Origin: Escherichia coli
Lineage (GTDB): Bacteria > Pseudomonadota > Gammaproteobacteria > Enterobacterales > Enterobacteriaceae
NCBI RefSeq assembly: GCF_024700885.2
Contig: NZ_CP117016.1
Reading direction: 5' to 3' (one strand)
Length of the DNA: 64,000 nucleotides
A program made the translations under genes and the position numbers. The notes beneath the pieces are model-generated. The model saw only the letters and a list, made by a program, of their open reading frames with translations. It was not told the origin of the DNA and ran no database searches. Shown piece after piece: positions 1-20,568 of the stretch (its first letter is position 1; each line of letters begins with the position of its first letter).

Positions 1-37
1 ATAATTAACACCGCAAAAAGTGCCAAAAATCGCAAAA

Positions 38-104
38 TGACTACACCAGTGACTACACCGTTCGGTGCACTGTATGAAACAACGTGGAACAAATAGACAC
101 AAGA
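38..104. repeat. Left-end repeat block: tandem gtgactacacc x2 followed by 10-bp phased AACAA repeats; near-identical block at 15068..15144
   Basis: tgactacaccagtgactacaccg at 38..60 is identical to 15068..15090; AACAA at 78, 88, 98. Confidence 0.6.
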
Positions 105-322
105 AATATACAGGCGGATCATCTTTCCAGGGGGAAGCACACCAATTCATGAGGGGCGTTAATGTCGATATGGGGATCCCCACCTACCGGAATTTTTTTC
201 CGGTTAAACGTTAATCAGGCTGGTGGGCTTTACCTGTTCGGTAGGTGTTATGATTATCGTAATACCTTTCCCCCAATGGGGTAAAAGCATCAACCGTAAC
301 GAAAGTCGTTATGGTTGCCACT

Positions 323-463
323 GATACCCCAAATTTGGGTATCACGAGTAAGCCCCAAAATCTGGGTGTTACTCTTACTACCCAAACTACGGGTAGTTTC
401 CGTAGTTTCATGGTCGAGTTGCAGATCTGCAACTCCCCCATTAACCACAGGCGAATTTCCGCC
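323..463. repeat. Cluster of inverted repeats (five or more hairpin-forming palindromes), function unknown
   Basis: gataccccaaatttgggtatc (323..343); ctacccaaactacgggtag (378..396); aaactacgg-gtagttt-ccgtagttt (384..408); perfect 20-bp palindrome gagttgcagatctgcaactc (415..434); ggcgaatttccgcc (450..463). Confidence 0.45.
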
Positions 464-689
464 TTCGGTCATTCCTTAATCATCTGCGTAATCATAATGA
501 TTATTCAGCAAGCGCAATTTTGCGCTTTGCTTAAAGTTCAGCGAGTTACCGCGCCGACTTCCTCAAATTGAGGTTTCCGAAAATATCAGCGGGTTAGCGA
601 TTAAGCTGACCATTAATTAAACTGCGAAAATGTCGTAGTTGTGAGGGGTGTAGCCAACCCATTTTTGGGCCGTCGGGAATATCAACCAG

Positions 690-971
690 TTACCGCCGCA
701 ACCGCTCCGGCTTCTTCCAGTGGTACGTTATTTTCTCCTTCTCCCGATACATCTCCACGCGGCGACGGTAGGCCAGCAACTCAAGAACTCTGGTTCGTAT
801 GTTGCGCATATCCACGCCATTAAGTTCTATACCATCACGGCGCATCACCTCAGCAACAACACGCGCATAGTTTTCGGCTGTCACGCTGTCCGGCTGCGTG
901 GCCTGTTCGTCAGCCTGCTGGCTGATTCCGGCAACGCGGCGGATTAATCCCGTTATTTCGGCTTCTGTCAT
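690..971 (-). CDS. Hypothetical protein, last gene of packaging operon
   Basis: 93-aa ORF starting 14 bp downstream of the terminase large subunit stop on the same strand. Confidence 0.5.
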   Translation of the reverse strand: MTEAEITGLIRRVAGISQQADEQATQPDSVTAENYARVVAEVMRRDGIELNGVDMRNIRTRVLELLAYRRRVEMYREKEKITYHWKKPERLRR

Positions 972-984
972 GCTGCTGACCTCA

Positions 985-2646
985 TTACACCCCGCTAAAT
1001 TCTTCCAGTTTCTGGCGGTGGCTGTCGCTTATATCAAAAGCAAAATCCTCATGCTCTGCCTGGAATGTACCAAACGCCATCAGCGCCGCCACGCTCGGGT
1101 CTATCTTGTTCGGTGATTTTTTCTTGTTCGGCTTGATATTGGCGTTCGCGTCACTCTGCATCACGACGTTACTCATCGACCAGGACAACACCGGATCGCC
1201 ACGATGCACAATCACCCTGCGGTTAACAAAAACTTCGAACGATTTCGCCGCCGGACTGAATCTGAGGTAGGTTTGCGGGAACGGCTCCACCTCAAAACCT
1301 GCCCCCTGTAATTGCGTTCTGAGATGCGTGGCGTTCCACGTATCAAAGCCCACCAGCCTGATATTAAATTTCTCCGCGTCCTGCATGATGTCATCTCTGA
1401 TCCGGTCGTAATCAATGCAGTCGCCAGGCGTTGTGCGTATCCAGCCTGCTTTAGCCCACTGACGATAGATGGCGCGGTTTTTATTGGCGGGGTTCTGTAG
1501 CTGAAATTCCGGCAGATAGTGACGGGAAACCAGCATAATGGTTTTACCGACCGGAAAGGCATAGCACACGCTGGAAATATCGCTGGTTGATGATAAGTCC
1601 AGCCCCGCGTAACACTCCTGGCCGTGTAAATCTTCCTCCGTGAACGTTCCGGCACACTCAGCCCATGCGCCGTTACCCATCCACGGGGTAGCCCCCTGGC
1701 ACCAGATATTAAATCGCTTTGTCATCATCTCCACCCACTGCGACGGAATACCCCGCGCTTTCTGGATGGTTGAGGCCAGTTTTTCACGATCGACGGAAAC
1801 ATCAATATTAGGGTTCGCCTTTATCCACATCGCCGGATCATCAACCTCGTTTTCGTCGTCCAGTTCGTAAATCAGTACAAAAATTGAATCGTTAACCTCT
1901 TCGCCGTCCAGGATCTGGCAGCAATAATCATAGTGCTGCTTACAGGCTGAAACGACGTTGCTGCCTGATGTGGTAATGGCAAATAACAGCCCTTCGGGAC
2001 GTGCGCCCATCCCCAGCTCAAGCGCGGAATAAACGCCGTTATCGGGGTGCAAGTGGTATTCGTCCACGATGGAAAGGCTGGGGTTTGTTCCCTCGATGGT
2101 TGCCGCTTTTGCTGCCAGCGGCTTTAACAGGCTGTTGCTTTTCGGGTGTATCACCTTATGCGCCTGAATATTCACCCGCCTGCGTAACGGTCGGGATAAA
2201 AGGCACATCTGACGCGCATCATCAAAGACGATCCGCGCCTGGTCACGGCTCACCGCTGCGGTGTAGATATCCTGCTGACCGTTCTCCATAATCAGAAACC
2301 AGTTAGCCAGAATCGCGGCGGTCGTGGATTTCGCATTTTTGCGCGGCACTTCGATAAAGGCGCTCGTGTATTTGCGCCGTCCGGTGGCCTTAACCTTAAA
2401 GCCGAGGATGCACGCAAAGGCGAACTGCTGCCACGGCTCCAGCTCAATGGGTCTGCCACGCATCGGTCCTTTTACGTGCGGGCACACCCTGGAAAAGGCA
2501 ATAAACCGCTCCACAACCTCACGATCGAACGTGTAAAGGGGGCTTTTAAGGTCCGAAAAGTACCGTTTAACGGCCTGTTTCAGCCGTTTACAGGCCGGAA
2601 TTTTGCCCGTTTTTACGTCTTCTGCGTACTTATTCCAGGCGGTCAA
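985..2646 (-). CDS. terL: Phage terminase large subunit
   Basis: 553-aa ORF with an N-terminal ATPase region and C-terminal nuclease-like region typical of Terminase_1 family; overlaps terS stop. Confidence 0.9.
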   Translation of the reverse strand: MTAWNKYAEDVKTGKIPACKRLKQAVKRYFSDLKSPLYTFDREVVERFIAFSRVCPHVKGPMRGRPIELEPWQQFAFACILGFKVKATGRRKYTSAFIEVPRKNAKSTTAAILANWFLIMENGQQDIYTAAVSRDQARIVFDDARQMCLLSRPLRRRVNIQAHKVIHPKSNSLLKPLAAKAATIEGTNPSLSIVDEYHLHPDNGVYSALELGMGARPEGLLFAITTSGSNVVSACKQHYDYCCQILDGEEVNDSIFVLIYELDDENEVDDPAMWIKANPNIDVSVDREKLASTIQKARGIPSQWVEMMTKRFNIWCQGATPWMGNGAWAECAGTFTEEDLHGQECYAGLDLSSTSDISSVCYAFPVGKTIMLVSRHYLPEFQLQNPANKNRAIYRQWAKAGWIRTTPGDCIDYDRIRDDIMQDAEKFNIRLVGFDTWNATHLRTQLQGAGFEVEPFPQTYLRFSPAAKSFEVFVNRRVIVHRGDPVLSWSMSNVVMQSDANANIKPNKKKSPNKIDPSVAALMAFGTFQAEHEDFAFDISDSHRQKLEEFSGV

Positions 2647-2986
2647 GCTCGTCCTCTTCTTCTGTTTCCGGTGGGTTTTTACGGCGGCTTATCGGGTCAA
2701 AACCGAGCAAGGAGGCCATTTTTATCATCACCCTTTCAGCGTCTGATTTCGCGCTTAATGCGGGGTTTCTGCTCTCGCCGCCCTGACTGTTAACAATGCT
2801 GAACCCGCGCGCCGCAAGGTCTGCGACGGCTTTCCGGTAAATGGAGTAGTTGACACAATACAGTTCCAGATTGCTCCAGTCGGCGGGGGTCAGGTCTCCC
2901 CGTTCCGCAAGCTGCCGCGATTTTTCCCGCCACTGCTTCACGGCGATGTCATCCAGGTAGGCGGGGGCTTTCGGTGGTCTTGCCAT
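2630..2986 (-). CDS. terS: Phage terminase small subunit (P27-like)
   Basis: 118-aa ORF immediately upstream of and overlapping terL; resembles P27-family small terminases with an acidic C-terminus. Confidence 0.7.
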   Translation of the reverse strand: MARPPKAPAYLDDIAVKQWREKSRQLAERGDLTPADWSNLELYCVNYSIYRKAVADLAARGFSIVNSQGGESRNPALSAKSDAERVMIKMASLLGFDPISRRKNPPETEEEDELDRLE

Positions 2987-3274
2987 GCTTATTTTTCGTC
3001 AGATTATTTTTCAAAAAATTCCCGTGCATAAAAATTTGAGGAGGCGTTCGGTGCCCGGCGGGGTCGGGTTTGTCCTGAAAACGCCCCCCACCCCGTCATA
3101 CAGCCTCATCAGCGATTGCGGAAACATTCCATAACCTCGCGGTCACGGTCGGTTAATCGCTTCGCTGTGATGCGTTCTGCGCGTCCTGACGCTTTATCTT
3201 TATGCCCTGTTTCCTGTGTCTTCCATGCGTCACGCTGCCTTATAAGTCCACGGATAAGGCGGTTTTGTTCCCGC
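2987..3274. other. Candidate cos/packaging site region between HNH gene and terS
   Basis: 288-bp non-coding gap in an HNH-cos-terS-terL arrangement (as in HK97-like cos phages); GC-rich segment cggtgcccggcggggtcggg...ccccccaccccgtc. Confidence 0.3.
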
Positions 3275-3715
3275 TCATTCATCAGCGTCATACATCCAGT
3301 TATTGCGGTTAGCGGCCCGTTCTTCCTCTTCACGAAATCCACCTGCGGCACGCTTGCTTTTTGTTGCCGGATCAAGCCATTTCGTTTTCTGGTTATGACA
3401 CGCCTGGCACAATGGTTGATGGTTCCATTCGGGCCAGAAGAGAACATCATCACCGCCATTAATCGGGATAATGTGATCCACCACCACGGCGGGCGTATAT
3501 ATCCCCTTCTCAAGGCATCGCACGCATAACGGGTTTTTACTCAGATACATGGCGCGGTATTTGTCCCACTGTCTGGAATATCCACGCGCGCGGCGGTGTC
3601 CTCGTCTGGCATCCTCTGCACGCCATGCCGCCCGCCTGTGCTCCTCACACTTGCCGGATTTAACGCGCCTGTTACAGCCTGGTTCTGTGCATCGTCTTAA
3701 TGGTTGCCACGGCAT
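3275..3715 (-). CDS. HNH endonuclease (terminase-associated)
   Basis: 146-aa ORF with Cys pairs and the DHIIP...N..LC..CH..K HNH motif, positioned upstream of terS. Confidence 0.85.
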   Translation of the reverse strand: MPWQPLRRCTEPGCNRRVKSGKCEEHRRAAWRAEDARRGHRRARGYSRQWDKYRAMYLSKNPLCVRCLEKGIYTPAVVVDHIIPINGGDDVLFWPEWNHQPLCQACHNQKTKWLDPATKSKRAAGGFREEEERAANRNNWMYDADE

Positions 3716-4011
3716 CAGTACACCCCCACATCACGGTAAGCCGTCCAGAGTGCGCCTATCGTCATGGGTACGCGTGTTTTTGCGTTATCCGCGACAATCT
3801 GGCGATTTTCATACAGGTGAGCGATAAACATCATGCAGCCAATCTTTATGGCTGGCGTGAACTCCAGCCCGTCATCAAAGCGCCTGCCTATGTGTATCTG
3901 GCACGCCTCAAGCGATGCGGCAATGTATCCGCTGATTAACTGGTCTTCATCGTCGCCATCGATGCGGCAATGGAGTTTCACTTCTTCCAGGGTGATAAGT
4001 TCTTCTGTCAT
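3715..4011 (-). CDS. Head-tail connector protein (gp6-like)
   Basis: 98-aa ORF, MTEELITLEEVK... resembles phage gp6-like head-tail connector family; translationally coupled to neighbours. Confidence 0.65.
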   Translation of the reverse strand: MTEELITLEEVKLHCRIDGDDEDQLISGYIAASLEACQIHIGRRFDDGLEFTPAIKIGCMMFIAHLYENRQIVADNAKTRVPMTIGALWTAYRDVGVY

Positions 4012-4346
4012 TTTTCCGCGCCCTCACGACAAAGAATTTCAAGGCGTGTCCTGGCGGCATCCGGCAGCGGCTGCCCGATGATATTCAGTACACGCCCCGC
4101 CAGCGGCCCCGTACTGACCTTTATCCGGCTGGTGGCGTTGATGTCCTTCCGGTACCGTATCCAGATCCTTACGGTACCAATCGCCAGCTCTGCGCCCGAT
4201 GAAATGGCCTCCTTGCTGCTGACCATGTTCACGCTTGCCCAGAGTGTGTGACCGTCCTCCCACGTTTCGAGTATTTCGCCGGTTATATCCCTGGTCTGTT
4301 TCAGGGTCTGAATCGTTATCCTGTCACGCAGTCGCCCTATGTTCAT
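4008..4346 (-). CDS. Head-tail adaptor / head closure protein
   Basis: ORF 4008..4388; probable start MNIGRLRDRITIQ at 4346, directly after portal stop, typical N-terminus of head-tail joining proteins. Confidence 0.65.
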   Translation of the reverse strand: MNIGRLRDRITIQTLKQTRDITGEILETWEDGHTLWASVNMVSSKEAISSGAELAIGTVRIWIRYRKDINATSRIKVSTGPLAGRVLNIIGQPLPDAARTRLEILCREGAEK

Positions 4347-5554
4347 TCCGGTTTTTCTCCCTCGCTGATTTTTACTTCCTGTTTCCATGCCTGGCTGAAC
4401 TCATCACCACCATCACGCGGTGACAGACCTTCACGTTCGCGGGCTTCGTTCGGACACATAACGCCGGATTTGATGCCGCGCTCATAGGTGGCAAAGCGTT
4501 CGCCAGGTGTGGCCCGTAACAGGTCCGCGCTGTCAAACTCCACCTGATACCGGATACCAGGTACAGGCGAGGCCACCAGCAGGGCGTTTTTTATCTGCTG
4601 CTCAAAGTTCGCCAGCCACGGGCGCATCGTCATGGTGAGAAATGCGCGGCTTGCCTCGCTGAAATTGCTGTAGGTGCTGTTGCTGTATTCCTGCAAAAAA
4701 ATCGGCGAGACGTTGAACATTCGGGCGATGTCTTCAATGGTGAAGCGACGGGAGGCCAGCCATTCAGCATCCTGATTACTCATGCCCAGCTGCTGATAGC
4801 TCATACCCCCTTCAAGGATGGGCGTTTTTCCGGCGTTTCTGGCCCCTTTGTAGCGTTCCAGTGCGGCTAATGCCTGTTTGCCCTTCACGCCGTCCAGCCA
4901 TTCGCCTGACGTGATAACCCCTGCCGCCATCATGCCATCACGCATCACGCTCGCGCCGTGGCGTTGTTGGGCCAGCCCAAGCCCCAGCGATTCGCGGCAG
5001 ATGGTTACAGGTGAGCACCCCATAAAGCCGTCATCCGTGGAGTAACGAAGGTGAAGTACTTCCCACGGTAAATAGTTGCGGGTGTTTCCGGTGTAGGCGT
5101 CAGTGATGCAGTAGCGCCAGTTGTGTTCGCCTGTCTGCTCCACGTTCACCGACTGCGGCGGGTAAGGATGTAAAGCCGCCGGAAAACCATCACGCCCCCA
5201 CTGAATCACCGCATAAGCATTACCGTTTAACAGGCAGTGGCGGATCATCATTCGCTTAAACTGGTAGGGGGTTTGCCATGCGTTCGGGCGCTCGTTGAGG
5301 ATGTGATCGACCGGATGAGAATCAAGCCACTCGCGGGCCTCCTTCCCCTTCTCATTGCGTACCAGGTACAGGTAACACGGCATGGTAGCCACCGCCTCAG
5401 AGATGACCGTCACGGCGTTCATGACGGCGGGCAGTGATTCCGCTGTCCCCGATGATACGTACTCACCCGCCCCCGTGTTCGATGTGCCAGCCAGCGCCAT
5501 AAATTCATCCAGCGTCATGCTGCGCTGCTCTTTTTTTCTTCTGAAAGGCCACAT
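4343..5554 (-). CDS. Portal protein (HK97 family)
   Basis: 403-aa ORF sitting between the prohead protease and adaptor genes, resembling HK97-family portal proteins. Confidence 0.85.
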   Translation of the reverse strand: MWPFRRKKEQRSMTLDEFMALAGTSNTGAGEYVSSGTAESLPAVMNAVTVISEAVATMPCYLYLVRNEKGKEAREWLDSHPVDHILNERPNAWQTPYQFKRMMIRHCLLNGNAYAVIQWGRDGFPAALHPYPPQSVNVEQTGEHNWRYCITDAYTGNTRNYLPWEVLHLRYSTDDGFMGCSPVTICRESLGLGLAQQRHGASVMRDGMMAAGVITSGEWLDGVKGKQALAALERYKGARNAGKTPILEGGMSYQQLGMSNQDAEWLASRRFTIEDIARMFNVSPIFLQEYSNSTYSNFSEASRAFLTMTMRPWLANFEQQIKNALLVASPVPGIRYQVEFDSADLLRATPGERFATYERGIKSGVMCPNEAREREGLSPRDGGDEFSQAWKQEVKISEGEKPE

Positions 5555-5555
5555 A

Positions 5556-6128
5556 TCACACCCCCGCTAAATCCACCCACCAGCGGCGATTATCCGCACG
5601 CGGCATTTTTTCGGGGTGCTGCTCATACAGGGAACGGCGGGCCAGCTCCACGCCGGAATCGGGGTAAGCCGGTACCGATGTAACGGTAATTTCGTACAGT
5701 TCCGCCACCAGCACGGTGCGCACGCATGGATCTGTTGTGGTATCCCATACATCCTTACGGGAGCGAAAGCCAAAGCTCATCCCCGAGATGTCCCCACGCT
5801 TAACCAGTTCGATAACGTCGCGCCCTGTACTGGTATCCGGTGGGGTCAGTTCAAAGCGTAACCCTGTTTCGTCCTCTTCCAGTTTCAGCGTGCCGGAACG
5901 GGTGCGCCCCAGTAACATGCTGTGGTCATGCTCATACAGGCCGCGAACGTCATTACCCGCCGCAAGCCACTCAGTAAACGCCCCCCGCTGGAATTTTTCG
6001 TAAAACTCCCCCCATAGCAGTTCTGAAAGCTTATCCCAGCGAACAACGTAGCCCGTCAGCGTACCGGCTCCGCTGGTAGTGATTTCCGATGACCGGATTT
6101 CCATACTCTTCATAATTTTTTCACCCAT
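5556..6128 (-). CDS. Prohead maturation protease (HK97 family)
   Basis: 190-aa ORF immediately downstream of the capsid gene, resembling HK97 prohead protease. Confidence 0.85.
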   Translation of the reverse strand: MGEKIMKSMEIRSSEITTSGAGTLTGYVVRWDKLSELLWGEFYEKFQRGAFTEWLAAGNDVRGLYEHDHSMLLGRTRSGTLKLEEDETGLRFELTPPDTSTGRDVIELVKRGDISGMSFGFRSRKDVWDTTTDPCVRTVLVAELYEITVTSVPAYPDSGVELARRSLYEQHPEKMPRADNRRWWVDLAGV

Positions 6129-6167
6129 AAAACACTAAAGGGGCTTTTAAGCCCCTTCTGTATGCTG

Positions 6168-7325
6168 TTAATCGTCGTCCTGTGGCAGTTCCAGAATCTT
6201 GATCGCGTTCGAATCCACCACGCCACCGCCTAAATATTTCTGCGTGAAAATTTTGATGAAGCCCGGCTCTGTGAGGTTGTCCGGTCTGGTGCGAACACCT
6301 GTTTCGTGATCAACAATGTAGTAACCGCGTTTGAAGTCACCCAGGGCAATAACGTTATCCGGCATAAACTCCAGATATTCGACCGGAAGGCCCAGTAACG
6401 TATCAGGATCACCCGCCTGTAAACGGTCGCGCCAGATGTAATCACCGTTCGCGTTCTTCACCTTCTGAAGTTTTGCCGCCGTCGTGGAGTTAACCACCCA
6501 GACCGCGTTTTTGCGGTATTTTTTACGTAATGCAAATTTCAGGTCGATCAGCGGGTCCGCAGATGTCCACGCCAGAGATTCGGAAGGTTTAATTACCTGC
6601 AACGTACCAAAATCACGCTCTTTGTCGTTCTTCTCTGCACGGGGTACGGATAAAAAGCCTTTTGCTTTTTTGTCACCGTCGCCCACAACCAGATCGCTTT
6701 CTTCGGTTTCCGTGAAGTTGTCGCCAATCTCGCCCGTCAGCCATGAAAGGATGTCCACATCGGAAAAATCCACGATTTCCTGCGTGGTGCGCGGGTACGC
6801 ATAGACCGGATACAGCTTAATGCTCACCTCGTTAATCTGCGGGGTGCTGGTCTGTTCGCGTGCCTTACCCTCTTCACCGTGGTTAACGGTCGCACCGCCA
6901 GCGGAAACAAGCTGCTTAAACTCGTTGCTGCTGATTTTCTTCACGGTACAGATGCGGCGCATGGTGGATTCATCCGTCAGCATTCGCATGATTTCGGTGT
7001 TCAGTTCGGGGATAACGGTATAACCACCATCAGCGGGAACGCCTGTACTTAATGCGCGGGTTTCACCTGTCAGAATGTAGTGACGTAGTTCGGCTGGGTC
7101 AGTGGTCTGACTGCTTTTACCTGGCTTGCTGCGCTCTTCGTCTGCAATGGCTTCAAGGCGGGAAATGTCTTTATCGAGGGATTCAGCTTTAGCGCGTAAT
7201 TCGTCAAATTTTGCGCCCTCAGCATCGTTAAGACTGCGGTTTTCTTTTTCCGCGTTCTCCAGCATGTCGCGCATCTGATTTTTAATGGCGGTTTTCTGCT
7301 GGCGTAATTCGATTATTCTCGGCAT
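6168..7325 (-). CDS. Major capsid protein (HK97 fold) with N-terminal delta/scaffold domain
   Basis: 385-aa ORF with a coiled-coil-rich N-terminus followed by HK97-like capsid region. Confidence 0.85.
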   Translation of the reverse strand: MPRIIELRQQKTAIKNQMRDMLENAEKENRSLNDAEGAKFDELRAKAESLDKDISRLEAIADEERSKPGKSSQTTDPAELRHYILTGETRALSTGVPADGGYTVIPELNTEIMRMLTDESTMRRICTVKKISSNEFKQLVSAGGATVNHGEEGKAREQTSTPQINEVSIKLYPVYAYPRTTQEIVDFSDVDILSWLTGEIGDNFTETEESDLVVGDGDKKAKGFLSVPRAEKNDKERDFGTLQVIKPSESLAWTSADPLIDLKFALRKKYRKNAVWVVNSTTAAKLQKVKNANGDYIWRDRLQAGDPDTLLGLPVEYLEFMPDNVIALGDFKRGYYIVDHETGVRTRPDNLTEPGFIKIFTQKYLGGGVVDSNAIKILELPQDDD

Positions 7326-7584
7326 AAAAAAAGTCCTGGGGTTAAGTAAGGAACTCCAGGACGCGGCAAAAACTCAACCGTTTTTCATAAGGAAATCAGC
7401 AATCGCACCGATCGTTTTCCCGCCTGGTAATGAATATTGGCGAGAACATTAACAGGCGGAAAAGTGGCCCCAGCGTCCTGGCACCACGGGCGAGAATAAT
7501 CATGATTCAGTTCGGGTAAAATATGCCGATCCGCTCAGTGAACAACGTGGAACAACCACGAACAAATAATTTACAAAACATGAC
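7326..7584 (-). promoter_or_regulatory. Upstream region of capsid/packaging operon containing 10-bp phased AACAA repeats (7541..7565)
   Basis: 259-bp non-coding gap between an upstream terminator and the capsid start; gtgaacaacgtggaacaaccacgaacaa. Confidence 0.45.
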
Positions 7585-7605
7585 AAAAAGCCGGATTGCT
7601 CCGGC
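7585..7605 (-). terminator. Rho-independent terminator ending the replication/early operon
   Basis: Minus-strand hairpin gccggagcaatccggc followed by TTTTT, immediately after the stop of the 93-aa ORF. Confidence 0.6.
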
Positions 7606-7612
7606 TGTGTGA

Positions 7613-7894
7613 TTATCTGTCCTGGTAATTTCGCCATATTTCATTACCAGCACCATCCATACCCATTTCGGCATAAGTGCGATCGACCGCCTTTTTCAGG
7701 TCTCCGTAGTTATCCGGCGGCTCCGGTGGCCTCTGTGCCTTCCTGGAACATTCCAGCCGTCGCATCGTGATGTGATGCCGTTCCTTGTCTGTCTCCACCA
7801 GTTGCATGACTTCACCCCATCGCGCCGACGCTCTCCGGTAAAAGCCTTTCGCCTCCAGTTCTTCCGCTATGCGGTCATGTACCATCGTCCCCAC
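7613..7894 (-). CDS. Hypothetical protein
   Basis: 93-aa ORF in operon with the SSB gene. Confidence 0.5.
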   Translation of the reverse strand: MGTMVHDRIAEELEAKGFYRRASARWGEVMQLVETDKERHHITMRRLECSRKAQRPPEPPDNYGDLKKAVDRTYAEMGMDGAGNEIWRNYQDR

Positions 7895-7897
7895 CCC

Positions 7898-8308
7898 TCA
7901 GAACGGAATATCATCACCGTAAGGGTCATCGCCTCCCGCTGGTGGCTGATTACCCTGTGTGCCTGTGGTCTTGCGTCGGCTCCCACCAGGACGTGCCGCA
8001 CGGGCACTGATTACGCTGTCTGCAATAACCTGATAACCCTGCCGCGTTTCCCCGTTCTGTCCGGTCCACTGGCTGACCTGCATCGTGCCGGATACGCTGG
8101 CAACGTCGCCTTTTTGATGTTTAGCCAGGAAGTCGGCCTGCTTACCAAATGCGATGACCGATAGCCATAACGTCGCCTGTCCATCCTGTGCCTGGCTGCA
8201 TGGCAGCGATACCGCCATACGCGCCAGCGTCATCGGTGTACCCTTGCTGGTCTGTTTTACCTGCGGGTCGTCCACCAGCCGCCCGTAAGCTGCTATCTGT
8301 GCTGTCAT
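7898..8308 (-). CDS. ssb: Single-stranded DNA-binding protein (SSB-like)
   Basis: 136-aa ORF with OB-fold-like core, Gly/Pro-rich linker and C-terminal DDIPF tail as in bacterial SSB. Confidence 0.75.
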   Translation of the reverse strand: MTAQIAAYGRLVDDPQVKQTSKGTPMTLARMAVSLPCSQAQDGQATLWLSVIAFGKQADFLAKHQKGDVASVSGTMQVSQWTGQNGETRQGYQVIADSVISARAARPGGSRRKTTGTQGNQPPAGGDDPYGDDIPF

Positions 8309-8583
8309 GATTCCACCTCTCCGGTTTTAACGTTGATGGTTGTTACCTGTTCCGCTTCGGCAATCTCCCGCTCTGTCAGCGTGGCAAAATTTGCCGCCGT
8401 CGTGGTCATGAATGCGCTTATCAGTTTGGGATGTGCTTTCGCGTATCCTTCCCCCGCGTGGCGGTCTATCGTTCTGATTGCCACCTTTAAAGCGTGCTCT
8501 GTCATGTCTAACGCGCGATATTTCGGTTCTGTTCTGTCTCTGCGTTTTTTGAGTGATTTATTAAATTTCCCTGAAGTGTGCAT
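8305..8583 (-). CDS. Hypothetical protein
   Basis: 92-aa ORF between the iteron origin and the SSB gene, overlapping the SSB start. Confidence 0.5.
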   Translation of the reverse strand: MHTSGKFNKSLKKRRDRTEPKYRALDMTEHALKVAIRTIDRHAGEGYAKAHPKLISAFMTTTAANFATLTEREIAEAEQVTTINVKTGEVES

Positions 8584-8629
8584 ATTTATTTTTACCCCCT
8601 CGTTTAAAAAGTTTTGAGTTGTGCCTCCC

Positions 8630-8860
8630 CTTGTCTACCTTATCTACCTTAGTGGCCCTCATACCAGTAATGGCGCGGCTTTCAGCGGGGTAGAGTGCTT
8701 TTATCCACTATCTACCCCGTGTCTACCTCCCTGTCTGATTCAGGTAAAATCAGGTAGAGAGGGTAGATAGTGGGTAGACAGTAAAAAAAGGTTATCTACC
8801 TAACTTAATGCACTGAATTAAATGTATTTTTCTTTACTCAGGTAGACAGGGTAGACAGCA
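8630..8860. repeat. Iteron array, putative island replication origin
   Basis: Ten or more copies of T(A/G)TCTACC in both orientations (e.g. tgtctacct, tatctacct, caggtagagagggtagatagtgggtagacag, caggtagacagggtagacag) immediately 3' of the primase gene. Confidence 0.7.
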
Positions 8861-8871
8861 ATTACAAAAAA

Positions 8872-10626
8872 TTATAAAAACGCGTCGCACTCGTCTGTTG
8901 TTATTGCGTTAGTCTGCGTTACTCCCTTAACTTTCCGCGTAATATATTCATGTCCGTAAACTTTCGCGGCTGGCTTCATAGCCTTGCCAAAGTCATTTAC
9001 GTTTAGCGGTTTGCTCCTGCCTGCGTACGCCATAAACGCCAGATAGACGCGGTAAAGGCTGTTTCTGGTCGTGTACTTCACTGAATCGCCACCGCCGCCC
9101 ATCATCAGGCCGCGTGCTTCCTCCAGAAAATTCAGGAACTGGCAAAACTCAATAACCGGATCCGTCTGTTGCTTTATTGCCAGAGCTTCATCACCGTCAC
9201 GCTGTTCCAGTAGTAAAGCCCGTGCCTTCTCAGGGTCGGTAAAGTTCGCCAGCAATCGGCGGATAATGACAGGGATTTCAGCCGCGATCTTTTCCGGTAG
9301 CTCCCTGTCTTTTTCGGCCTCACTGACGATATTGTCGAAACGGAAAATCACGCGACGACGTGCCACACCTCCGGCCCGTTCGGTGAATATCATCGGGTTA
9401 TTGTTGGTCGCCAGCACCACCGCCCTGATTACCGCCGTGAAACGCTTTTCGTATTTCGGGTTAATTTCCACGGGGTCACCGCCCGTGATTTTCTTGATGC
9501 CCGTTCCTTCGCCTGTATATTTCGGCTGGTCAGCCAGGACGATAAGACGACTCCCGACAACCTGCGCACGTCCACCAGCATCATCAAGCGATGTCATTTC
9601 AGCGCTTACCGTGTTCTGTTTCCCTGCCAGAAGGCTGGCTATGTGTGTGAATGTACTTTTACCGCTCCCGCCGTCTCCGGTGGCCTCAATAAACATCTGC
9701 CAGTCGTACCGGTTCGCCATAATCATGTACAGCGCGGCACATATACGCATCATCTTGCGCGGGTCTTTTCCGGCTGCGTGCTCAAGCCATTTATGAAAGT
9801 TTGGCGCGTTATCGCGGATGTTCTCCCCTGGTGCTGGTGGCGTGTACTCAATGCCGTTGTGCGTGGTGATCCAGTTCTCCGGCGTGTGCGGGGAAAATTC
9901 CCCCGTTTTCAGGTCAAGCGCACCATTGGCGAACGGCAACAAATCGCCGGACGGCTCGCCCATTGGTTCGGCAATAACTTTTAACGCTTCCACGGCGTTA
10001 TTGATTACGCGCTTGCTGAAAGTGGCCCTGTGCTCTGAATAGATCGCCACCATTTCGCGGCTAAGTTCCATTGTGCTGACCGGACACCATACCCCGCCGC
10101 GCCATACGTGAACGATTTCACTTTCAGGATGTACGCAAACGCCATCAAAGCGATCGGCAAGCAGTTGCGCGCGCTCACTGTCCGCCATCTGCGAAAGTTG
10201 CGCCTTTTGCTTTACCGGAAGCTCAATGACCAGACCATCAGAAAGATTCTGGCGCTCACGGGCCAGATATTCGCGCCAGTTCTCCACCTTCTGACCGTGC
10301 ATACCATCAGGGTAAAAATTTGCATCCTGTACGCCTGCCGCCGCCAGCTTCTGACCAATCGCCTTTATCATTACTGGCGCAAGATATCCGGCCCTGAATA
10401 TGCGCACGGATTTTCTGCCTTCCGGCACAATTTGCAGCTTATCCAGTTCGGATAACTGCTGCTCCCCAAGCCACACAGGAGGCTCATTATCTCCGGCCAT
10501 ACGCGCGTCATGTTCCTGCCATTGTTTTGCGTGTGACCAGGCATCACTACCCGCAAAAATAATGACTTCTGTTTCTTTGTGTTTTATGCCGCGTGACTGC
10601 TGTTTTACGTTCGGTGCCAGTTTCAT
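8872..10626 (-). CDS. Replication initiator: phage/plasmid primase with D5/P4-type NTPase (helicase) domain
   Basis: 584-aa ORF with Walker A GDGGSGKST and downstream motifs typical of P4-family primase C-terminal domain; followed by iterons. Confidence 0.8.
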   Translation of the reverse strand: MKLAPNVKQQSRGIKHKETEVIIFAGSDAWSHAKQWQEHDARMAGDNEPPVWLGEQQLSELDKLQIVPEGRKSVRIFRAGYLAPVMIKAIGQKLAAAGVQDANFYPDGMHGQKVENWREYLARERQNLSDGLVIELPVKQKAQLSQMADSERAQLLADRFDGVCVHPESEIVHVWRGGVWCPVSTMELSREMVAIYSEHRATFSKRVINNAVEALKVIAEPMGEPSGDLLPFANGALDLKTGEFSPHTPENWITTHNGIEYTPPAPGENIRDNAPNFHKWLEHAAGKDPRKMMRICAALYMIMANRYDWQMFIEATGDGGSGKSTFTHIASLLAGKQNTVSAEMTSLDDAGGRAQVVGSRLIVLADQPKYTGEGTGIKKITGGDPVEINPKYEKRFTAVIRAVVLATNNNPMIFTERAGGVARRRVIFRFDNIVSEAEKDRELPEKIAAEIPVIIRRLLANFTDPEKARALLLEQRDGDEALAIKQQTDPVIEFCQFLNFLEEARGLMMGGGGDSVKYTTRNSLYRVYLAFMAYAGRSKPLNVNDFGKAMKPAAKVYGHEYITRKVKGVTQTNAITTDECDAFL

Positions 10627-10922
10627 TTTTTACCCCTGAATCCGTTAATCATGGTTTTCAGCTTCTGGATGTTTGCCCGTGCCCTGGCGTTGCTGGTGGA
10701 CACGTTATGCGGCGCGGTCTGTACCAGAGAAAAATCACGCCGGAACTGATAAACAGGCATCACGCAATCATATTCGTAACCTTCACGGCGGTAGGTTACG
10801 CGCCGTTCTTCCACGCCCTTAATCATTACCGTGCCGCCGTACTGGTCGCGGTAAATATCGCCGCGCGTAAATTTAGGGTGAGTGTTGCCACTGGCAGTTA
10901 AGCCAGAATATTTAAGTTTCAT
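10623..10922 (-). CDS. Hypothetical small protein (accessory operon gene 7)
   Basis: 99-aa ORF whose stop overlaps the primase start (ATGA). Confidence 0.5.
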   Translation of the reverse strand: MKLKYSGLTASGNTHPKFTRGDIYRDQYGGTVMIKGVEERRVTYRREGYEYDCVMPVYQFRRDFSLVQTAPHNVSTSNARARANIQKLKTMINGFRGKK

Positions 10923-10927
10923 TATTT

Positions 10928-11161
10928 TTATTCTCCGGTGTGCTGTTCTTTATATCTGTCGTGCAATAGATCTATTTCTTGCAGTTCCATTATTACAGGC
11001 TCAAGAAGCGTTATTAATGCCGTGGCAATTCTTGATTTTTGTTTGTCGCGTTCATTGTCGCCAAGTGTTTCAAGCCATATGCGCAATATTTCCAGCATGT
11101 TTTCACTGTGAGAAAGTGCAAGAAATGCGCGGTCTATTGTTTCGTGGTAAATATCACGCAT
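10928..11161 (-). CDS. Hypothetical small protein (accessory operon gene 6)
   Basis: 77-aa ORF, same strand, tightly packed. Confidence 0.45.
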   Translation of the reverse strand: MRDIYHETIDRAFLALSHSENMLEILRIWLETLGDNERDKQKSRIATALITLLEPVIMELQEIDLLHDRYKEQHTGE

Positions 11162-11387
11162 GGCTTACATCCTCAGGAAATTTTCTTCTATAACGCGCCT
11201 CTGCCACATATTCCGCATAATCGGCGGCGATATTCAGTACATCAAGCCCCGTTGATTTATATTCTCTCGTGGAAAGTAAGAAAAAAGCCGCTCTAATAAG
11301 TTCTGGCATTGACGAAAGCGCATCAGCCGCATCATCAGGAACGCCGGAAAATTCCTGTTTCAGGGAATTAAAACGATCATCACGCAT
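11154..11387 (-). CDS. Hypothetical small protein (accessory operon gene 5)
   Basis: 77-aa acidic ORF overlapping its neighbours by 8 bp. Confidence 0.45.
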   Translation of the reverse strand: MRDDRFNSLKQEFSGVPDDAADALSSMPELIRAAFFLLSTREYKSTGLDVLNIAADYAEYVAEARYRRKFPEDVSHA

Positions 11388-11763
11388 GTTTACCCCCCTG
11401 AATGACCTGATAACCGCAACTGGTCAGCAACTCGATAAATTCCGGCAGTGTGCCGAAACAGCAATCATCACGCAGCCGTTCACAGGATACCTCGACGCCG
11501 TTTTCGTAGTGACTCACCATACATCCGGTAAAATGCAGATCATCATCGTGATGGCTCGTTGACGGCTTAATCAGTCGCGCACGTTCCGCCAGTTCCAGCA
11601 ATGCTTCAACGCTTCCGGCAATTGCACCATCCGGCAGGTGATAATTACGCACTATGCGCCCGTTCTCCACATTGACCAGCAACTGCCCGGTAAATTTCTC
11701 ATCAAACTGAATGCTGTTAAGGTCAGAAATTGACAGATTATGCATGGTGCACCTCCTGCACAT
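11380..11763 (-). CDS. Hypothetical protein (accessory operon gene 4)
   Basis: 127-aa ORF; start may be the internal Met at 11745 (MHNLSI...). Confidence 0.5.
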   Translation of the reverse strand: MCRRCTMHNLSISDLNSIQFDEKFTGQLLVNVENGRIVRNYHLPDGAIAGSVEALLELAERARLIKPSTSHHDDDLHFTGCMVSHYENGVEVSCERLRDDCCFGTLPEFIELLTSCGYQVIQGGKHA

Positions 11764-12016
11764 CAGCCATGATAATTTTTCCGGCCTTATCCAGTGCCTG
11801 ATCGGCTTTTAGCTGCACAAATGCTAAATAATGGAAGATGCATTCTGATTCTCTGGCTGCGTGTTTATGCGCCCTGTCAGCAATAACAGAAATATCAATA
11901 AGCGCGTGCATCAGCGTAGTGAGCGCGGCGGCGGCTGCGTCCGGTGTGGTTTTATTGCACATGTACCCCTCCGCATTTTTTTTCGTTAGAAATAAGCGTT
12001 CTTCTTTCCTGTTCAT
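11738..12016 (-). CDS. Hypothetical small protein (accessory operon gene 3)
   Basis: 92-aa ORF; start may be the internal Met at 11962, which would remove most of the overlap with the upstream gene. Confidence 0.45.
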   Translation of the reverse strand: MNRKEERLFLTKKNAEGYMCNKTTPDAAAAALTTLMHALIDISVIADRAHKHAARESECIFHYLAFVQLKADQALDKAGKIIMADVQEVHHA

Positions 12017-12182
12017 CGCTCAGGAATACGCAGACCTCACCGCTAAGGCGTTTAAGTAAGCCGATGATTGCCCCTGATTCGCTGTCGGTCATCATGCCAG
12101 GGTAATCCTCTGCCAGTGCGCAAATAACTTCGATTTGGTGGGCGCGTTCTGCTGCCTGTTGTAGTGTGATTTCCTGGCTCAT
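11952..12182 (-). CDS. Hypothetical small protein (accessory operon gene 2)
   Basis: 76-aa ORF, start overlaps the stop of the upstream gene. Confidence 0.45.
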   Translation of the reverse strand: MSQEITLQQAAERAHQIEVICALAEDYPGMMTDSESGAIIGLLKRLSGEVCVFLSDEQERRTLISNEKKCGGVHVQ

Positions 12183-12379
12183 AAGCCTACCCCCTGACGA
12201 ATACGGGCAGCAAATACCATCACGCAGCCAGCCGGAGATTGCTGGCGTGCTTCCTGTTCGCTGGTGGCCTCAATGGTAATCACGCGCGGTTGTGCCGTGC
12301 TCAGGGCGATAAAACGCCAGATGTATTTATTCAGGTTGTGCGAGTCCCGCCCTTGCGGGTGTGTGGTATGATTTCTCAT
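12179..12379 (-). CDS. Hypothetical small protein, first gene of leftward operon (Cro-like position)
   Basis: 66-aa ORF starting MRNHTT at 12379; the 340-aa ORF in the track is read-through across the regulatory region. Confidence 0.4.
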   Translation of the reverse strand: MRNHTTHPQGRDSHNLNKYIWRFIALSTAQPRVITIEATSEQEARQQSPAGCVMVFAARIRQGVGL

Positions 12380-12476
12380 AGCTACCTCGATACTTTCGCT
12401 ATCGTTGGTGGTTAGAAGCCCGGTTAGTGTTAGCGCACTGCCGGGTTTCGTCGTTTCTGCACCTTGCGCCAACAAG

Positions 12477-12528
12477 GTGTTGAACACCAATTTAAACCCA
12501 GGTGTTAAACACGTCAAGTGTTGAACAC
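12477..12528. promoter_or_regulatory. Three palindromic operators GTGTTnAACAC between divergent promoters
   Basis: gtgttgaacac (12477..12487), gtgttaaacac (12502..12512), gtgttgaacac (12518..12528) in the gap between divergent gene sets. Confidence 0.6.
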
Positions 12529-12578
12529 TTATTTTTTTTCCTGCATACTGCATTTGTTTTTTATGAGGGGTACACCAC

Positions 12579-12758
12579 ATGGCGACAAAAGCGGTAAACG
12601 CAAAATCACAAACCGTTGCGGCAAGGGTTCCGCATGAAGTTATGAACAATGTTGAGGCGGTAAAAATGCCTGGCGAAAGTACGGGGCAATTTGTTACTGC
12701 GGCATTAAAACGAGAAGTTGAATATCGCCAGCGGCGCAAGGCCAAAGAACCAGAGTAA
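12579..12758 (+). CDS. Putative ribbon-helix-helix transcriptional regulator
   Basis: 59-aa ORF (below the track cutoff) with a Shine-Dalgarno-like gagggg upstream; beta-strand/helix/helix pattern typical of Arc/MetJ/CopG family; adjacent to operators. Confidence 0.5.
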   Translation: MATKAVNAKSQTVAARVPHEVMNNVEAVKMPGESTGQFVTAALKREVEYRQRRKAKEPE

Positions 12759-12800
12759 TCACCATCAGCGCCGTGGTGTAAGGTATTACGGCGCATTGCT

Positions 12801-12989
12801 ATGCAGGACAACACAATGACCGATAAAGAATTGACCAAAACATTATCACCGGCACGGAAAAGACGGCGCAGAAAGATAGAGCATGAATCAGAAAGATTCG
12901 CGCCATGTGCTTTTGCCCTTGAGCAATTCCTTAAAGAGTACAGGGAAAAGCGCTCATTGCAGGTATGGCAACGAACTGAACCAGACTGA
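12801..12989 (+). CDS. Hypothetical small basic protein
   Basis: 62-aa ORF downstream of the RHH gene on the same strand, followed by a terminator. Confidence 0.4.
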   Translation: MQDNTMTDKELTKTLSPARKRRRRKIEHESERFAPCAFALEQFLKEYREKRSLQVWQRTEPD

Positions 12990-13083
12990 TTGCATTGCCC
13001 ACCAGCCTGATAACGGCTATCATCCCCGTGCTTATGTTTGGGATCACACACACAAACGGCGCAGCGGGTTATCTGTTCAGAAA

Positions 13084-13113
13084 GGCGGCTCCATTTCGGG
13101 GCCGCTTTTTTTA
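13084..13113 (+). terminator. Rho-independent terminator of rightward regulatory transcript
   Basis: Hairpin gcggctcc-attt-cggggccgc followed by TTTTTTT. Confidence 0.55.
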
Positions 13114-13258
13114 TACCTGAAAAACCCCAATTTTGTTGTTTTTCAGTTTCACCAGGGCGAACGAATCCCCGCCCACGTTCTGGCGTATATTCAATCTTCA
13201 TGGTTATAGCTCTGTGTTCAGATGATTGATGTGTGGCGGCTGCGTGCCGCCAGCGTGA

Positions 13259-13528
13259 TTAATGAACTGCCTTGCAGCTATCCTTCCAGGCCAGAACCTC
13301 GGATAAAGACCAGCCAACGGAACGACCGCCAAGTTTACGACGTGATGGGAATTGTCCGGCCTTTTCCAGGCGGTAGCGACACGTACGGCTAAGGCCGGTT
13401 AGTTTTTCGCATTCTTTTTCACGTATAAACCGATCAGTGCTTAACACTATTGCCCCCCTTTCGTTTCTTAAAGAGTCATCAGGTGTCTTATTGTGTCGTA
13501 TTGTTCCCGCTAGAGTGATGAATGGCAA
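13259..13528 (-). CDS. alpA: AlpA-family phage transcriptional regulator / excisionase-like
   Basis: 89-aa ORF; C-terminal region ...LTGLSRTCRYRLEKAGQFPSRRKLGGRSVGWSLSEVLAW matches AlpA-family pattern; adjacent to int; true start may be downstream. Confidence 0.8.
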   Translation of the reverse strand: MPFITLAGTIRHNKTPDDSLRNERGAIVLSTDRFIREKECEKLTGLSRTCRYRLEKAGQFPSRRKLGGRSVGWSLSEVLAWKDSCKAVH

Positions 13529-13720
13529 ATACTGAGGATGTATGATTTACAGAAAATGAAACAGTAAGAATAAAATTTTTTAAATTCATGTTAATACAAA
13601 GGCATAAAATATTGTTCCATGCCTTTTTTCTCGCTCTTTAAAGAGTGATTCGCTAGTGTACAAAAAACCAGTAACGCATTAAAAATCAGCTACTTATAAA
13701 TCCGTACGCTTTTTCGCCTC

Positions 13721-13765
13721 TTGTTCGTAGTTGTTCCACATTGTTGCTCATTGTTGCACGTTGTA
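13721..13765. promoter_or_regulatory. Five 10-bp phased TTGTT repeats (reverse-complement of AACAA array) between int and alpA
   Basis: ttgttcgtag ttgttccaca ttgttgctca ttgttgcacg ttgta at exact 10-bp spacing. Confidence 0.5.
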
Positions 13766-13812
13766 TCTGTTCGCATATCCAGTATGCGCATACTGAAAAA
13801 ACACGAAAAAAA

Positions 13813-15042
13813 TTATTTTCTTCTGGCTACGGGTAGCGTGGTTACGTTTTCATGTGTTCCCGCCAGTATCCCTAACCGCTCCGTCCACATATCCAGCGCA
13901 TTGCGTTTCGCATCCAGATAACGGGAATGATTATAAACTCGCTGCATTCCTGGCATCTGGTGGCCTGTAAGCTGCTCCACGACATGCGGATCAACGCCTA
14001 AATCGTTCAGCATGGTTGTAAAGGTGCGCCGGATGTCATGCAGTGACCAGTGAGGGTGATTAAGCCTCCTGTACGCTAATCTTCCATACTGCGATACGCT
14101 GGCCTCCTGTTTCACTTCCCCCAGCAATAAGCCCGTGTGCCTGTTCTGCTCCACCAGCTGCGTGACGAACGGCAGGATCGCTTCCGGTATGGGCCGGAAT
14201 ATTGCGACCTTCGTTTTGCTGTGCTCCTTCGGAACGGTCCATAGCATTTCCGTAAAATCCCACTCCCCGATCTCCGATAACCTCAGTTCTACCGTTCTGG
14301 CTCCGAAGACAATCAGGAGGCGGATTAACGCGACGTAGTAAGGGGAGAATATTTTTTTGTCCAGTGCCTGCAATAATTCGCCAAGTTCTTTGTTACTTAA
14401 GACACGTTCGCTTATATCCGGTTTTTTCCCAACGTCCGCAACGTTCAGATCGTCCAGAACGTTGCTGATTGCATAGCGCCGCCTACGGCAGAACTTAAGC
14501 GCCTGTTTGCACGCCTGTAGCACGAATCCGGCAGTAACAGGCGTTCGCTTTGCCACCTGGTCAAAACAGGCCAGCCAGTGCCGTAGCTCGCATTTATCCA
14601 GCGGCATAGCACCAATCTGCTGTATTACGTGATTATTAAGTCGCCTTTTCAGGGCGATATAATCCACGCGGTTTTCCTTTACGTAATACTCAAGCCAGTA
14701 GGTGAGCGCATCGCCAACCGTTACGGGCTTTAACGCTTCCTGTACGGTGTAATTCATCTCATGACGTGGATTTTTCCCCTCAGCCAGCCATGTGCGACAC
14801 TGTGCGGCTTTTTCCCTGGCTGCTTTCAGGCTCAGATCAGGATAACTTCCCAGCTTAATGCGTTCGGGTCGTGTCTCCCTTCCCGTTCCGGCCCTGTATG
14901 TGAAATACCAGGTCAATTTCCCTGATGTTAAATATTTCACGCTCAGGTTTCCGCCATCACTATAAAACGTGTTTTTCTCCGCTGGCTTACCATGAAGTTT
15001 CCTTAGCAAGGTATCGCTCAGTTTGTTCATTGCTCTGCTCAC
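13813..15042 (-). CDS. int: Tyrosine-type site-specific integrase (P4-like)
   Basis: 409-aa ORF with catalytic-domain motifs (HDIRRTF, GHQ, VYNHSRY) at the island end next to the chromosomal junction. Confidence 0.92.
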   Translation of the reverse strand: MSRAMNKLSDTLLRKLHGKPAEKNTFYSDGGNLSVKYLTSGKLTWYFTYRAGTGRETRPERIKLGSYPDLSLKAAREKAAQCRTWLAEGKNPRHEMNYTVQEALKPVTVGDALTYWLEYYVKENRVDYIALKRRLNNHVIQQIGAMPLDKCELRHWLACFDQVAKRTPVTAGFVLQACKQALKFCRRRRYAISNVLDDLNVADVGKKPDISERVLSNKELGELLQALDKKIFSPYYVALIRLLIVFGARTVELRLSEIGEWDFTEMLWTVPKEHSKTKVAIFRPIPEAILPFVTQLVEQNRHTGLLLGEVKQEASVSQYGRLAYRRLNHPHWSLHDIRRTFTTMLNDLGVDPHVVEQLTGHQMPGMQRVYNHSRYLDAKRNALDMWTERLGILAGTHENVTTLPVARRK

Positions 15043-15067
15043 GTTTTACCCCCTCTTTACGAAAAAG

Positions 15068-15144
15068 TGACTACACCAGTGACTACACCGATCGTTGCAC
15101 AAAGGGCTACAACGTGAAACAAGCTGGAACAAGGAAAATCACAA
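15068..15144. repeat. Right-end repeat block, copy of 38..104
   Basis: tgactacaccagtgactacaccg (15068..15090) then phased AACAA at 15118, 15128, 15140. Confidence 0.6.
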
Positions 15145-15215
15145 ATCTATTGATAATCAAAAACATAATGCACAGCCTGAAACATTATGAAACAGCAAAA
15201 AACACTAAATGATAA

Positions 15216-17547: not shown

Positions 17548-19143
<1,596 letters not shown>

Positions 19144-20548: not shown

Positions 20549-20568
20549 CTATTCAGTTACTCCTATAA

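Follow-up and report, generated by a model that had tools for sequence, protein, structure and literature searches.

Introduction

Phage-inducible chromosomal islands of the capsid-forming type (cf-PICIs) are satellites that build tail-less capsids with packaging genes of their own and take their tails from a helper phage. Two published definitions describe the class. The cfPICI model of SatelliteFinder comprises 11 core components and forbids tail and holin genes (de Sousa et al.), and He et al. (2025) define islands of 10-18 kb that carry an integrase together with replication, regulation and exclusive packaging modules and have no lytic genes and no complete tail module. The closest described system is the Escherichia coli prototype EcCIEDL933, whose deposited capsid model, PDB 9GYI, is a T=4 structure and whose heads measure ~47 nm (He et al.). 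In the prototype, mutation of any packaging gene of the island abolishes transfer of the island while transfer of the helper is kept, helper tail mutants lose transfer of both, and alpA is required. Here we describe an element at the left end of a 64,000-nucleotide stretch of E. coli DNA (contig NZ_CP117016.1; the whole stretch is called the window below). Judging from sequence comparison, we put the probability that it is an intact cf-PICI of the EcCIEDL933 lineage, inserted in the E. coli gene tqsA, at about 0.92. The element is a close and ordinary relative of the already characterised prototype and a further member of a described family.

Two other islands of the same family, EcCIGN02175 and KpCIDSM30104, share its architecture and tail-less-capsid life style (He et al. 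2025), but their adaptor and connector are only 35-40% and 61-63% identical to those of the EcCIEDL933 type, to which the island described here belongs. The adaptor and connector set the tail specificity, the EcCIEDL933 pair working with the tails of HK106 and not with those of HK022 (He et al.). Classical E. coli PICIs (EcCICFT073 type) have a similar front half made of int, alpA, primase and origin, are induced in an AlpA-dependent manner, and carry the same distal module, in which the phrog_1561 gene is also the last gene and is accompanied by a 123-bp hairpin block. They differ from the present island in having no portal, connectors or TerL, in using helper heads and terminase, and in carrying a lambda-like cosN with Rpp. 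With phage HK97 the island shares the HK97-fold capsid, the prohead protease, the SxGxxAD maturation motif at residue 93 and HNH-assisted cos packaging, but the HK97 capsid is T=7, in contrast to the small T=4 capsid reported for the prototype, and the island is without tail, lysis and lysogeny-switch genes. The next-best solved relative of the capsid protein is that of the Rhodobacter capsulatus gene transfer agent (E=9e-47). Unlike the gene transfer agent, the island would package itself, and it possesses att sites, an integrase and an origin of its own.

Gene content and the packaging module

Gene families were assigned by PHROGs profile searches with 28 open reading frames (ORFs), shorter overlapping ORFs being left out, and NCBIfam, PADLOC and Rfam (at gathering thresholds) were also applied to the ORFs or the window. 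For comparisons beyond the capsid structure we used the homologous island of the O157:H7 strain Sakai, which is annotated as "prophage Sp7; untypable" (15,461 bp, between phoQ and roxA). Sp7 is taken here as the equivalent of EcCIEDL933 because its capsid protein is likewise identical to that of the window at 382 of 385 residues; EcCIEDL933 itself is presumably CP-933C in EDL933. All coordinates below are those of the window. With the exception of one gene and a doubtful 60-aa ORF, the island genes are all on the minus strand, and this strand is meant wherever no other is given.

All 11 core components of the SatelliteFinder cfPICI model are present and intact, namely int, alpA, primase, capsid, protease, portal, two head-tail connectors, HNH, TerS and TerL. 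From position 7325 down to 985 the genes follow one another in the order capsid-protease-portal-connectors-hnh-terS-terL, which is the order described for proteobacterial cf-PICIs. The HK97-fold major capsid protein (6168-7325; PHROGs 3.5e-88) is identical to PDB 9GYI at 382 of 385 residues (99.2%); it conserves S93 of the maturation motif as well as D257, K290, D295, E319, R345 and the 227-248 loop, the last six of which were tested by mutagenesis by He et al. It is followed by an HK97-family prohead protease (5556-6128; phrog_80, 1.9e-67; 97.4% identical to Sp7), the portal (4343-5554; phrog_12, 2e-115; 99.0%), the head closure or head-tail connector protein Hc1 (4008-4346; phrog_25, 7.9e-35; 96.4%) and the head-tail adaptor Ad1 (3715-4011; phrog_40, 8.4e-36; 99.0%). 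The HNH endonuclease of the packaging module (3275-3715; phrog_144, 8e-45; 99.3%) has a Sakai homologue labelled "holin protein", which is a misannotated HNH gene. Next comes a 60-aa ORF (3109-3291; phrog_3173, 7.5e-37; 100%), which from the gene order is probably the equivalent of EcCIEDL933 gene 1792, a gene whose mutation severely reduced transfer according to the paper on the cf-PICI prototype. The module ends with the P27-family small terminase TerS (2630-2986; phrog_83, 2.6e-39; 100%) and the large terminase TerL (985-2646; phrog_9, 2e-179; 98.4%).

The integrase-proximal part of the island holds a tyrosine integrase (13813-15042; phrog_1, 7e-72, full length; 91.2% identical to the Sp7 integrase), AlpA (13259-13447; phrog_2790, 2.5e-17; 98.4%), which activates E. 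coli PICIs and regulates their excision and is one of the AlpA/MerR/Stl regulator types that the SatelliteFinder model admits, and a P4-family primase, the replication initiator (8872-10626; phrog_864, 1.2e-175), which scores 109.1 bits against TIGR01613 with a cut-off of 108.7. Between primase and capsid lie a single-stranded DNA-binding protein, SSB (7898-8308; phrog_44, 1e-40), and a PerC-family regulator, named in RefSeq as a PchE homologue (7613-7885; phrog_994, 4.5e-46), which is 86.5% identical to the Sakai pchE product. Every sequence-level feature of a cf-PICI is thus found, from the integrase, the AlpA regulator and the primase with its origin to the capsid and protease, the portal, adaptor and connector, and the HNH, TerS and TerL proteins. 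The first-pass annotation, made from the letters of the window, had proposed a cf-PICI with an integrase, AlpA, primase, iteron origin, SSB and an HK97-type head module and had made the proposal depend on the structural ORFs belonging to head-protein families; PHROGs matched its assignments on the minus strand, the structural ORFs all strongly, and both the published definitions and the near identity of the capsid to PDB 9GYI agree with the class that it named.

Among the 28 ORFs searched, none has a match in the PHROGs families for tails, baseplates, fibres, holins or endolysins, as the first-pass annotation had also held. No tail, holin or lysis gene was found inside the att boundaries, which exclude the neighbouring DNA, and the left flank is made up of the truncated tqsA and mdtJI. 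The modules for tails, lysis and the lysogeny switch by which a temperate phage would be recognised are likewise not within these boundaries. Phage-like head and terminase genes without tails might in principle also be what is left of a cryptic defective prophage that lost its tail and lysis genes and became immobile, and the label of the Sakai homologue as a prophage would fit such a history. It is nevertheless very improbable, since exact att repeats bound a compact unit of 15.3 kb, the packaging genes are all intact and 96-100% identical to those of a prototype that mutagenesis and electron microscopy showed to be a functional satellite, and the int-alpA-primase module is of the PICI type and not lambdoid. 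The prototype, moreover, shares at most six homologues with any phage (Alqurainy et al.).

The front half of the island also resembles other satellites. The P4-like satellites are defined by psu, sid and delta, the genes for capsid size and late control. An assignment to this group, or to classical PICIs that remodel the capsids of their helpers, could draw on the P4-family primase (TIGR01613), the AlpA/Vis-like regulator, the P4-type integrase and a distal end module that is common to classical PICIs. However, no ORF of the island matches psu, sid or delta, so that only the primase, the regulator and the integrase are shared with P4-like satellites, and the portal, adaptor, connector and TerL, all present here, are forbidden in the classical PICI model of SatelliteFinder and diagnostic of cfPICIs. 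As the island has no lambda-type cosN either, we regard both assignments as hardly credible, and the cf-PICI reading as the one to be followed below.

The remaining genes are small. The last gene of the island encodes a 93-aa protein of unassigned function (690-971; phrog_1561), whose homologue in Sp7 is 87% identical. The early stretch 10623-12182 is taken up by six small ORFs, of which one is a DUF4222 gene and the other five are hypothetical, and which gave no defence-system match; they are headed by a gene for an Icd-like small protein, the first gene of the early/replication operon (12179-12379; NF033153, 1.9e-18; phrog_6196, 1.2e-45), and a divergent small gene of the YlcI/YnfO family is found on the plus strand (12579-12758; NF041551, 2e-16). 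A 92-aa protein without assigned function stands between the primase and SSB entries of the PHROGs results. NCBIfam added matches only for the Icd-like, YlcI/YnfO and P4-primase proteins, together with a weak one to ANR/PerC. According to He et al., immune systems are to be expected in the two variable regions beside the packaging operon of cf-PICIs. In the present island these regions are small, one holding the PerC homologue and the other the 93-aa gene and 690 bp, and no defence or virulence cargo was detected, PADLOC giving no defence-system match for ten ORFs of unknown function. The first-pass annotation was thus right in assigning the island to a described class, and no special cargo was detected.

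Insertion site and distribution

The left flank of the island was taken from the chromosome of E. coli MLI114 (NZ_CP117013.1), whose reverse strand agrees with the 64 kb window at every base. Measured between its att cores, the island has a length of 15,263 bp, a size within the range given by He et al., and runs from position -36 to position 15226 of the window, within tqsA and between 9-bp direct repeats TGCTGTTAT. The attL core TGCTGTTAT is outside the window, 37-45 bp left of position 1 (-45 to -37; MLI114 slice 11955-11963), and the attR core TGCTGTTAT is at 15218-15226, where tqsA resumes as judged by comparison with the empty site, the uninterrupted tqsA of K-12. In the alignment to the K-12 gene the left identity extends up to base 137 and the right identity starts from base 129, and therefore the 9-bp core TGCTGTTAT is duplicated at the two junctions. 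The RefSeq annotation of MLI114 agrees in placing a 144-bp tqsA 5' fragment ~30 bp left of window position 1 and the remainder of tqsA from 15219. The first-pass annotation had estimated an extent of ~15 kb with nearly exact coordinates and had left the left junction to be recovered from flanking sequence; it had also named genes for tails or lysis immediately to the left of position 1 as the mark of an ordinary prophage. What lies there is 36 bp of island, the attL core and the tqsA 5' fragment, followed by mdtJ, mdtI and ydgD, i.e., by ordinary chromosome.

The gene tqsA, which encodes an autoinducer-2 exporter, is split at codons 43-46 of 344, the right part being window 15219-16124, and consequently no intact copy is present at this locus in carriers of the island. 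A tRNA scan of the window found no tRNA, and the insertion is therefore not of the tRNA-targeting kind. A literature search on tqsA together with PICI returned nothing relevant. The rest of the window (15227-64000) is ordinary E. coli core chromosome with pntBA, rstAB, tus, fumCB, manA, uidRABC, malXY, the rsx operon, tyrS, slyAB and ydhIJK.

The island is present at a coverage of at least 80% in 157 of 5,426 complete E. coli genomes, many of them with 100% identity, and its carriers were isolated from humans, dogs and the environment; the capsid gene is present in 360 complete E. coli genomes. Near-100% identity in many unrelated isolates suggests recent spread.

Relation to the prototype

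Gene order is the same in Sp7/EcCIEDL933 and in the present island, with SSB and PerC homologues at the same places. DNA identity to Sp7 is 97.3% across 678-7611, which is the whole packaging module (6.9 kb) with full-length proteins that are 96-100% identical, and this answers the comparison with an E. coli prototype that the first-pass annotation had proposed. The identity is 92.9% across 7585-8559 and 94.1% across 12761-15218 (alpA, int and the attR arm), whereas no similarity is seen in the origin, in the early ORFs and in the greater part of the primase. Only the first 163 residues of the Sp7 primase match the island primase (82%), and the island has its own primase allele and its own iterons. 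The early small ORFs differ as well, Sp7 being without the divergent ylcI/ynfO gene and without the 123-bp hairpin block of the distal arm and having one more small gene upstream of the capsid gene. The site of integration is also different, as Sp7 lies between phoQ and roxA with a core of approximately AAATATGTCC and the present island lies in tqsA with the core TGCTGTTAT. The two integrases are 91% identical (window 13813-15042 versus 19724-20953 of the Sp7-locus slice), yet their chromosomal sites and cores differ.

By its sequence the island is a mosaic, in which the packaging module and the int-alpA end of the prototype are joined to another replication module. The latter (primase and origin) occurs at a coverage of at least 80% in 530 complete E. 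coli genomes, compared with the 360 that have the capsid gene. De Sousa et al. found that PICIs and cf-PICIs exchange their integrase-proximal half, and the differences in site, primase, origin and early genes are the usual mosaicism of such islands.

Three observations weigh against the island being an intact cf-PICI. First, the island departs from the prototype in its replication module and downstream of alpA (in 10937-12760 and most of the primase), and induction and replication could therefore differ. Second, RefSeq marks an "icd-like" pseudogene at 12754-13201. Third, neither a helper prophage nor a candidate helper was found within the 64 kb window, 15227-64000 containing no prophage. 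Together with the literature report that none of the 17 resident prophages of EDL933 induces the prototype, these observations could be taken to mean that the island is a cf-PICI by descent that has become stranded, i.e., that it can no longer be induced or replicate because its early region is rearranged or no compatible helper circulates. We consider this unlikely. The replication module found in 530 genomes and the ylcI-Icd module, present at a coverage of at least 80% in 620 complete E. coli genomes, are common and conserved PICI modules and not damage. The stretch called a pseudogene, which lies upstream of the Icd-like gene, matches no protein family and can probably be regarded as a hairpin-rich leader without coding function, and the near identity of the island in many unrelated isolates speaks for recent spread. 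With the intact cf-PICI as the preferred reading, the realistic doubt that remains concerns the inducibility of this allele in present hosts.

A cf-PICI architecture is also seen in LR881103.1, "Escherichia phage vB_KppS-Ant", a linear record of 16,548 bp that was deposited as an induced phage. Its genes run in the order terS-terL, then int, primase, capsid, portal and connectors, with a 444-bp ORF in the position of HNH. In this record the label "tape measure" is given to a 765-aa gene that follows terL, probably through misannotation of an accessory gene.

Replication origin and candidate cos site

An iteron-type origin adjoins the primase gene at 8627-8861 and contains a stretch of 72% A+T at 8785-8845. 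Directly downstream of the primase gene, a stretch of 246 bp contains 11 TCTACC/GGTAGA hexamers in both orientations, compared with 14 in the other 63.7 kb of the window, and the iteron origin next to the primase gene is real.

In HK97-type phages with HNH-dependent cos packaging the cos site is located between HNH and terS. From this arrangement we infer that the cos region of the island is the 122-bp gap upstream of terS, between the 60-aa ORF and terS (2987-3108), with the 1-690 arm as the alternative. The linear record of vB_KppS-Ant has its start 22 bp upstream of terS and its end behind HNH and a small ORF, which is consistent with this candidate, even though a record start near terS may be a mere convention of annotation. 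The 54 IMG/VR loci that were matched are nearly all prophage predictions from isolate genomes, and their contig ends are therefore uninformative about cos. No site resembling the lambda cosN GGGCGGCGACCT above chance was found in the island, and thus the island has no lambda-type cos.

A putative antisense RNA and the early control region

In the literature, Gram-negative PICIs are said to lack a negative regulator, and how they are silenced and switched on is called unresolved. A putative antisense small RNA of ~79 nt, made of two hairpins and a T-rich tail, lies on the plus strand at 12380-12458, where it faces the Icd-like gene's ribosome-binding site. The stretch folds as two hairpins with z=-4.45, and a set of seven diverged copies from E. 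coli shows compensatory changes. These seven copies were used to build a covariance model, and a search of 838 kb of related loci with it gave 45 copies, which, when the loci were oriented by the capsid gene, were always on the strand opposite to it; Sp7 (slice 18339-18418) and vB_KppS-Ant hold one copy each. Across 31 distinct sequences, 97% of cells pair, against 36-50% when the partners are slid; double changes are seen at 15 of 25 pairs, and none of 500 shuffles reaches the observed values, which are to be read with the reservation that the alignment was fitted to the model and so favours structure. The plus strand is the one that folds, because its G-U pairs are frequent and, read from the opposite strand, would become A-C mismatches. 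A TGnTATGAT-like extended -10 box 7 nt upstream and the T-rich tail are kept in both subfamilies of the RNA.

At gathering thresholds, Rfam matched nothing in the whole 64 kb. A full-length match to SymR (RF01809) was found at 12380-12458 on the plus strand with 33.3 bits (E=3.5e-4 in 1.15 kb; gathering threshold 61 bits), and the antisense RNA resembles SymR in shape and geometry and is not a member of the family. SymR begins next to the start codon of symE on the opposite strand, much as the present RNA does with respect to its target, and the two-hairpin shape is shared, but the target is the Icd-like gene that heads a satellite replication operon and not symE. The c4 RNA of P1 and the CI RNA of P4 are further analogies. 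A literature search on Icd-like with antisense returned no description of such an antisense RNA module.

Between the YlcI/YnfO gene and the Icd-like gene (12460-12758), two perfect GTGTTCAACAC palindromes flank a leftward promoter. In one relative the YlcI/YnfO gene is replaced at the same place by a HicB-family gene, and it is possible that the YlcI/YnfO gene and the GTGTTCAACAC palindromes form a small repressor/operator pair. An uninterrupted ORF of 340 aa at 12179-13201 on the minus strand was considered as a protein and rejected, as only its last ~48 residues match (Icd-like) and its first 149 are without a match; the YlcI/YnfO gene sits inside it on the opposite strand, and RefSeq divides the region into the pseudogene and a 66-aa gene.

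Phased repeats and att arms

The motif AACAA-N5-AACAA, with a phasing of 10 bp, occurs nine times in the 64 kb, and seven of these occurrences are inside the island at four intergenic places. One unit is in the attL arm (78-92). Three phased half-sites (7541-7575, plus strand) lie 216 bp upstream of the capsid gene, just after a terminator-like hairpin of perC (7606-7589), five half-sites (13721-13765, minus strand) lie in the int-alpA intergenic region, and further units (15108-15132) lie within the repeats of the attR arm. Sp7 carries phased AACAA at the same four places, and in ~40 related loci it is found at position -240/-230 relative to the capsid gene. The site at 7541-7575 is a candidate activator site for the packaging operon.

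Next to the phased AACAA, tandem (G/A)TGACTACACC repeats with a 12-bp period are found at 37-59, where they read as tandem ACTACACC, and at 15067-15089; they are candidates for arm-type sites of the integrase. The attR-arm repeats (15064-15142, plus strand), in which GTGACTACACC appears twice and is followed by the phased AACAA units, are a 76-nt direct repeat of window 34-109. A classical PICI end has the same arrangement, with TAACTACACC twice, and the arm repeats shared with classical PICIs are ACTACACC twice and then phased GAACAA. Taken together, the phased AACAA and the tandem arm repeats would be AlpA sites and integrase arm sites, respectively, and phased AACAA bound by AlpA might link excision to activation of the late genes.

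It can be proposed, with considerable reservation, that the early region holds a previously undescribed antisense RNA brake on the replication operon, with an extended -10 promoter and a terminator of its own, as a candidate for the missing negative regulator, and that a single protein, probably AlpA, binds the phased AACAA at the arms and upstream of alpA and of the capsid operon and in this way couples excision to expression of the head genes. This combined proposal is rather less probable than not in our view.

The distal (attL-side) arm as a whole (1-690) contains no ORF with a family match and gave no match in the phage collection. It includes a hairpin-rich block at 310-450, which folds with z=-7.4 on both strands. 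At their distal end, downstream of the 93-aa gene that they share with the island, classical PICIs carry a sequence 94% identical to the block's 123-bp core (318-440). The block had no match in the phage collection and is absent from Sp7; its copies show little sequence diversity, and one of them has lost a hairpin by deletion.

Proposed life cycle

The life cycle outlined here, including inducibility, the position of cos and tail specificity, is modelled on the prototype, whose packaging proteins are 96-100% identical to those of the island. A helper siphophage would turn on alpA, and AlpA, for which autoactivation was shown in EcCICFT073, would drive excision together with the integrase and would also drive early transcription. 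The P4-type primase would then fire the adjoining iteron origin, giving rise to concatemers. The capsid protein, protease and portal of the island would assemble small T=4 heads of ~47 nm, into which the HNH, TerS and TerL proteins of the island would package only island DNA, cut at its own cos site. Since the island makes neither tails nor lysis proteins, tail-less heads would be released, and tails made by the helper would dock to them through the adaptor and head closure proteins. The tail partner is predicted to be of the HK106 type, as for EcCIEDL933, and not HK022-like, because the adaptor and head closure proteins are 99% and 96% identical to the EcCIEDL933 type.

Conclusions

The main value of the present analysis is that of correct annotation, since genomes still label regions of this kind as generic phage genes or cryptic prophages. 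The island is widespread and so would be a horizontal-transfer vehicle for which foreign tails are the only requirement. As it combines the packaging module of the prototype with another integration site and another replication module, it offers a natural comparison for the study of interchangeable parts of cf-PICIs. The antisense RNA and the phased repeats may, in turn, provide testable handles on how Gram-negative PICIs are silenced and switched on.

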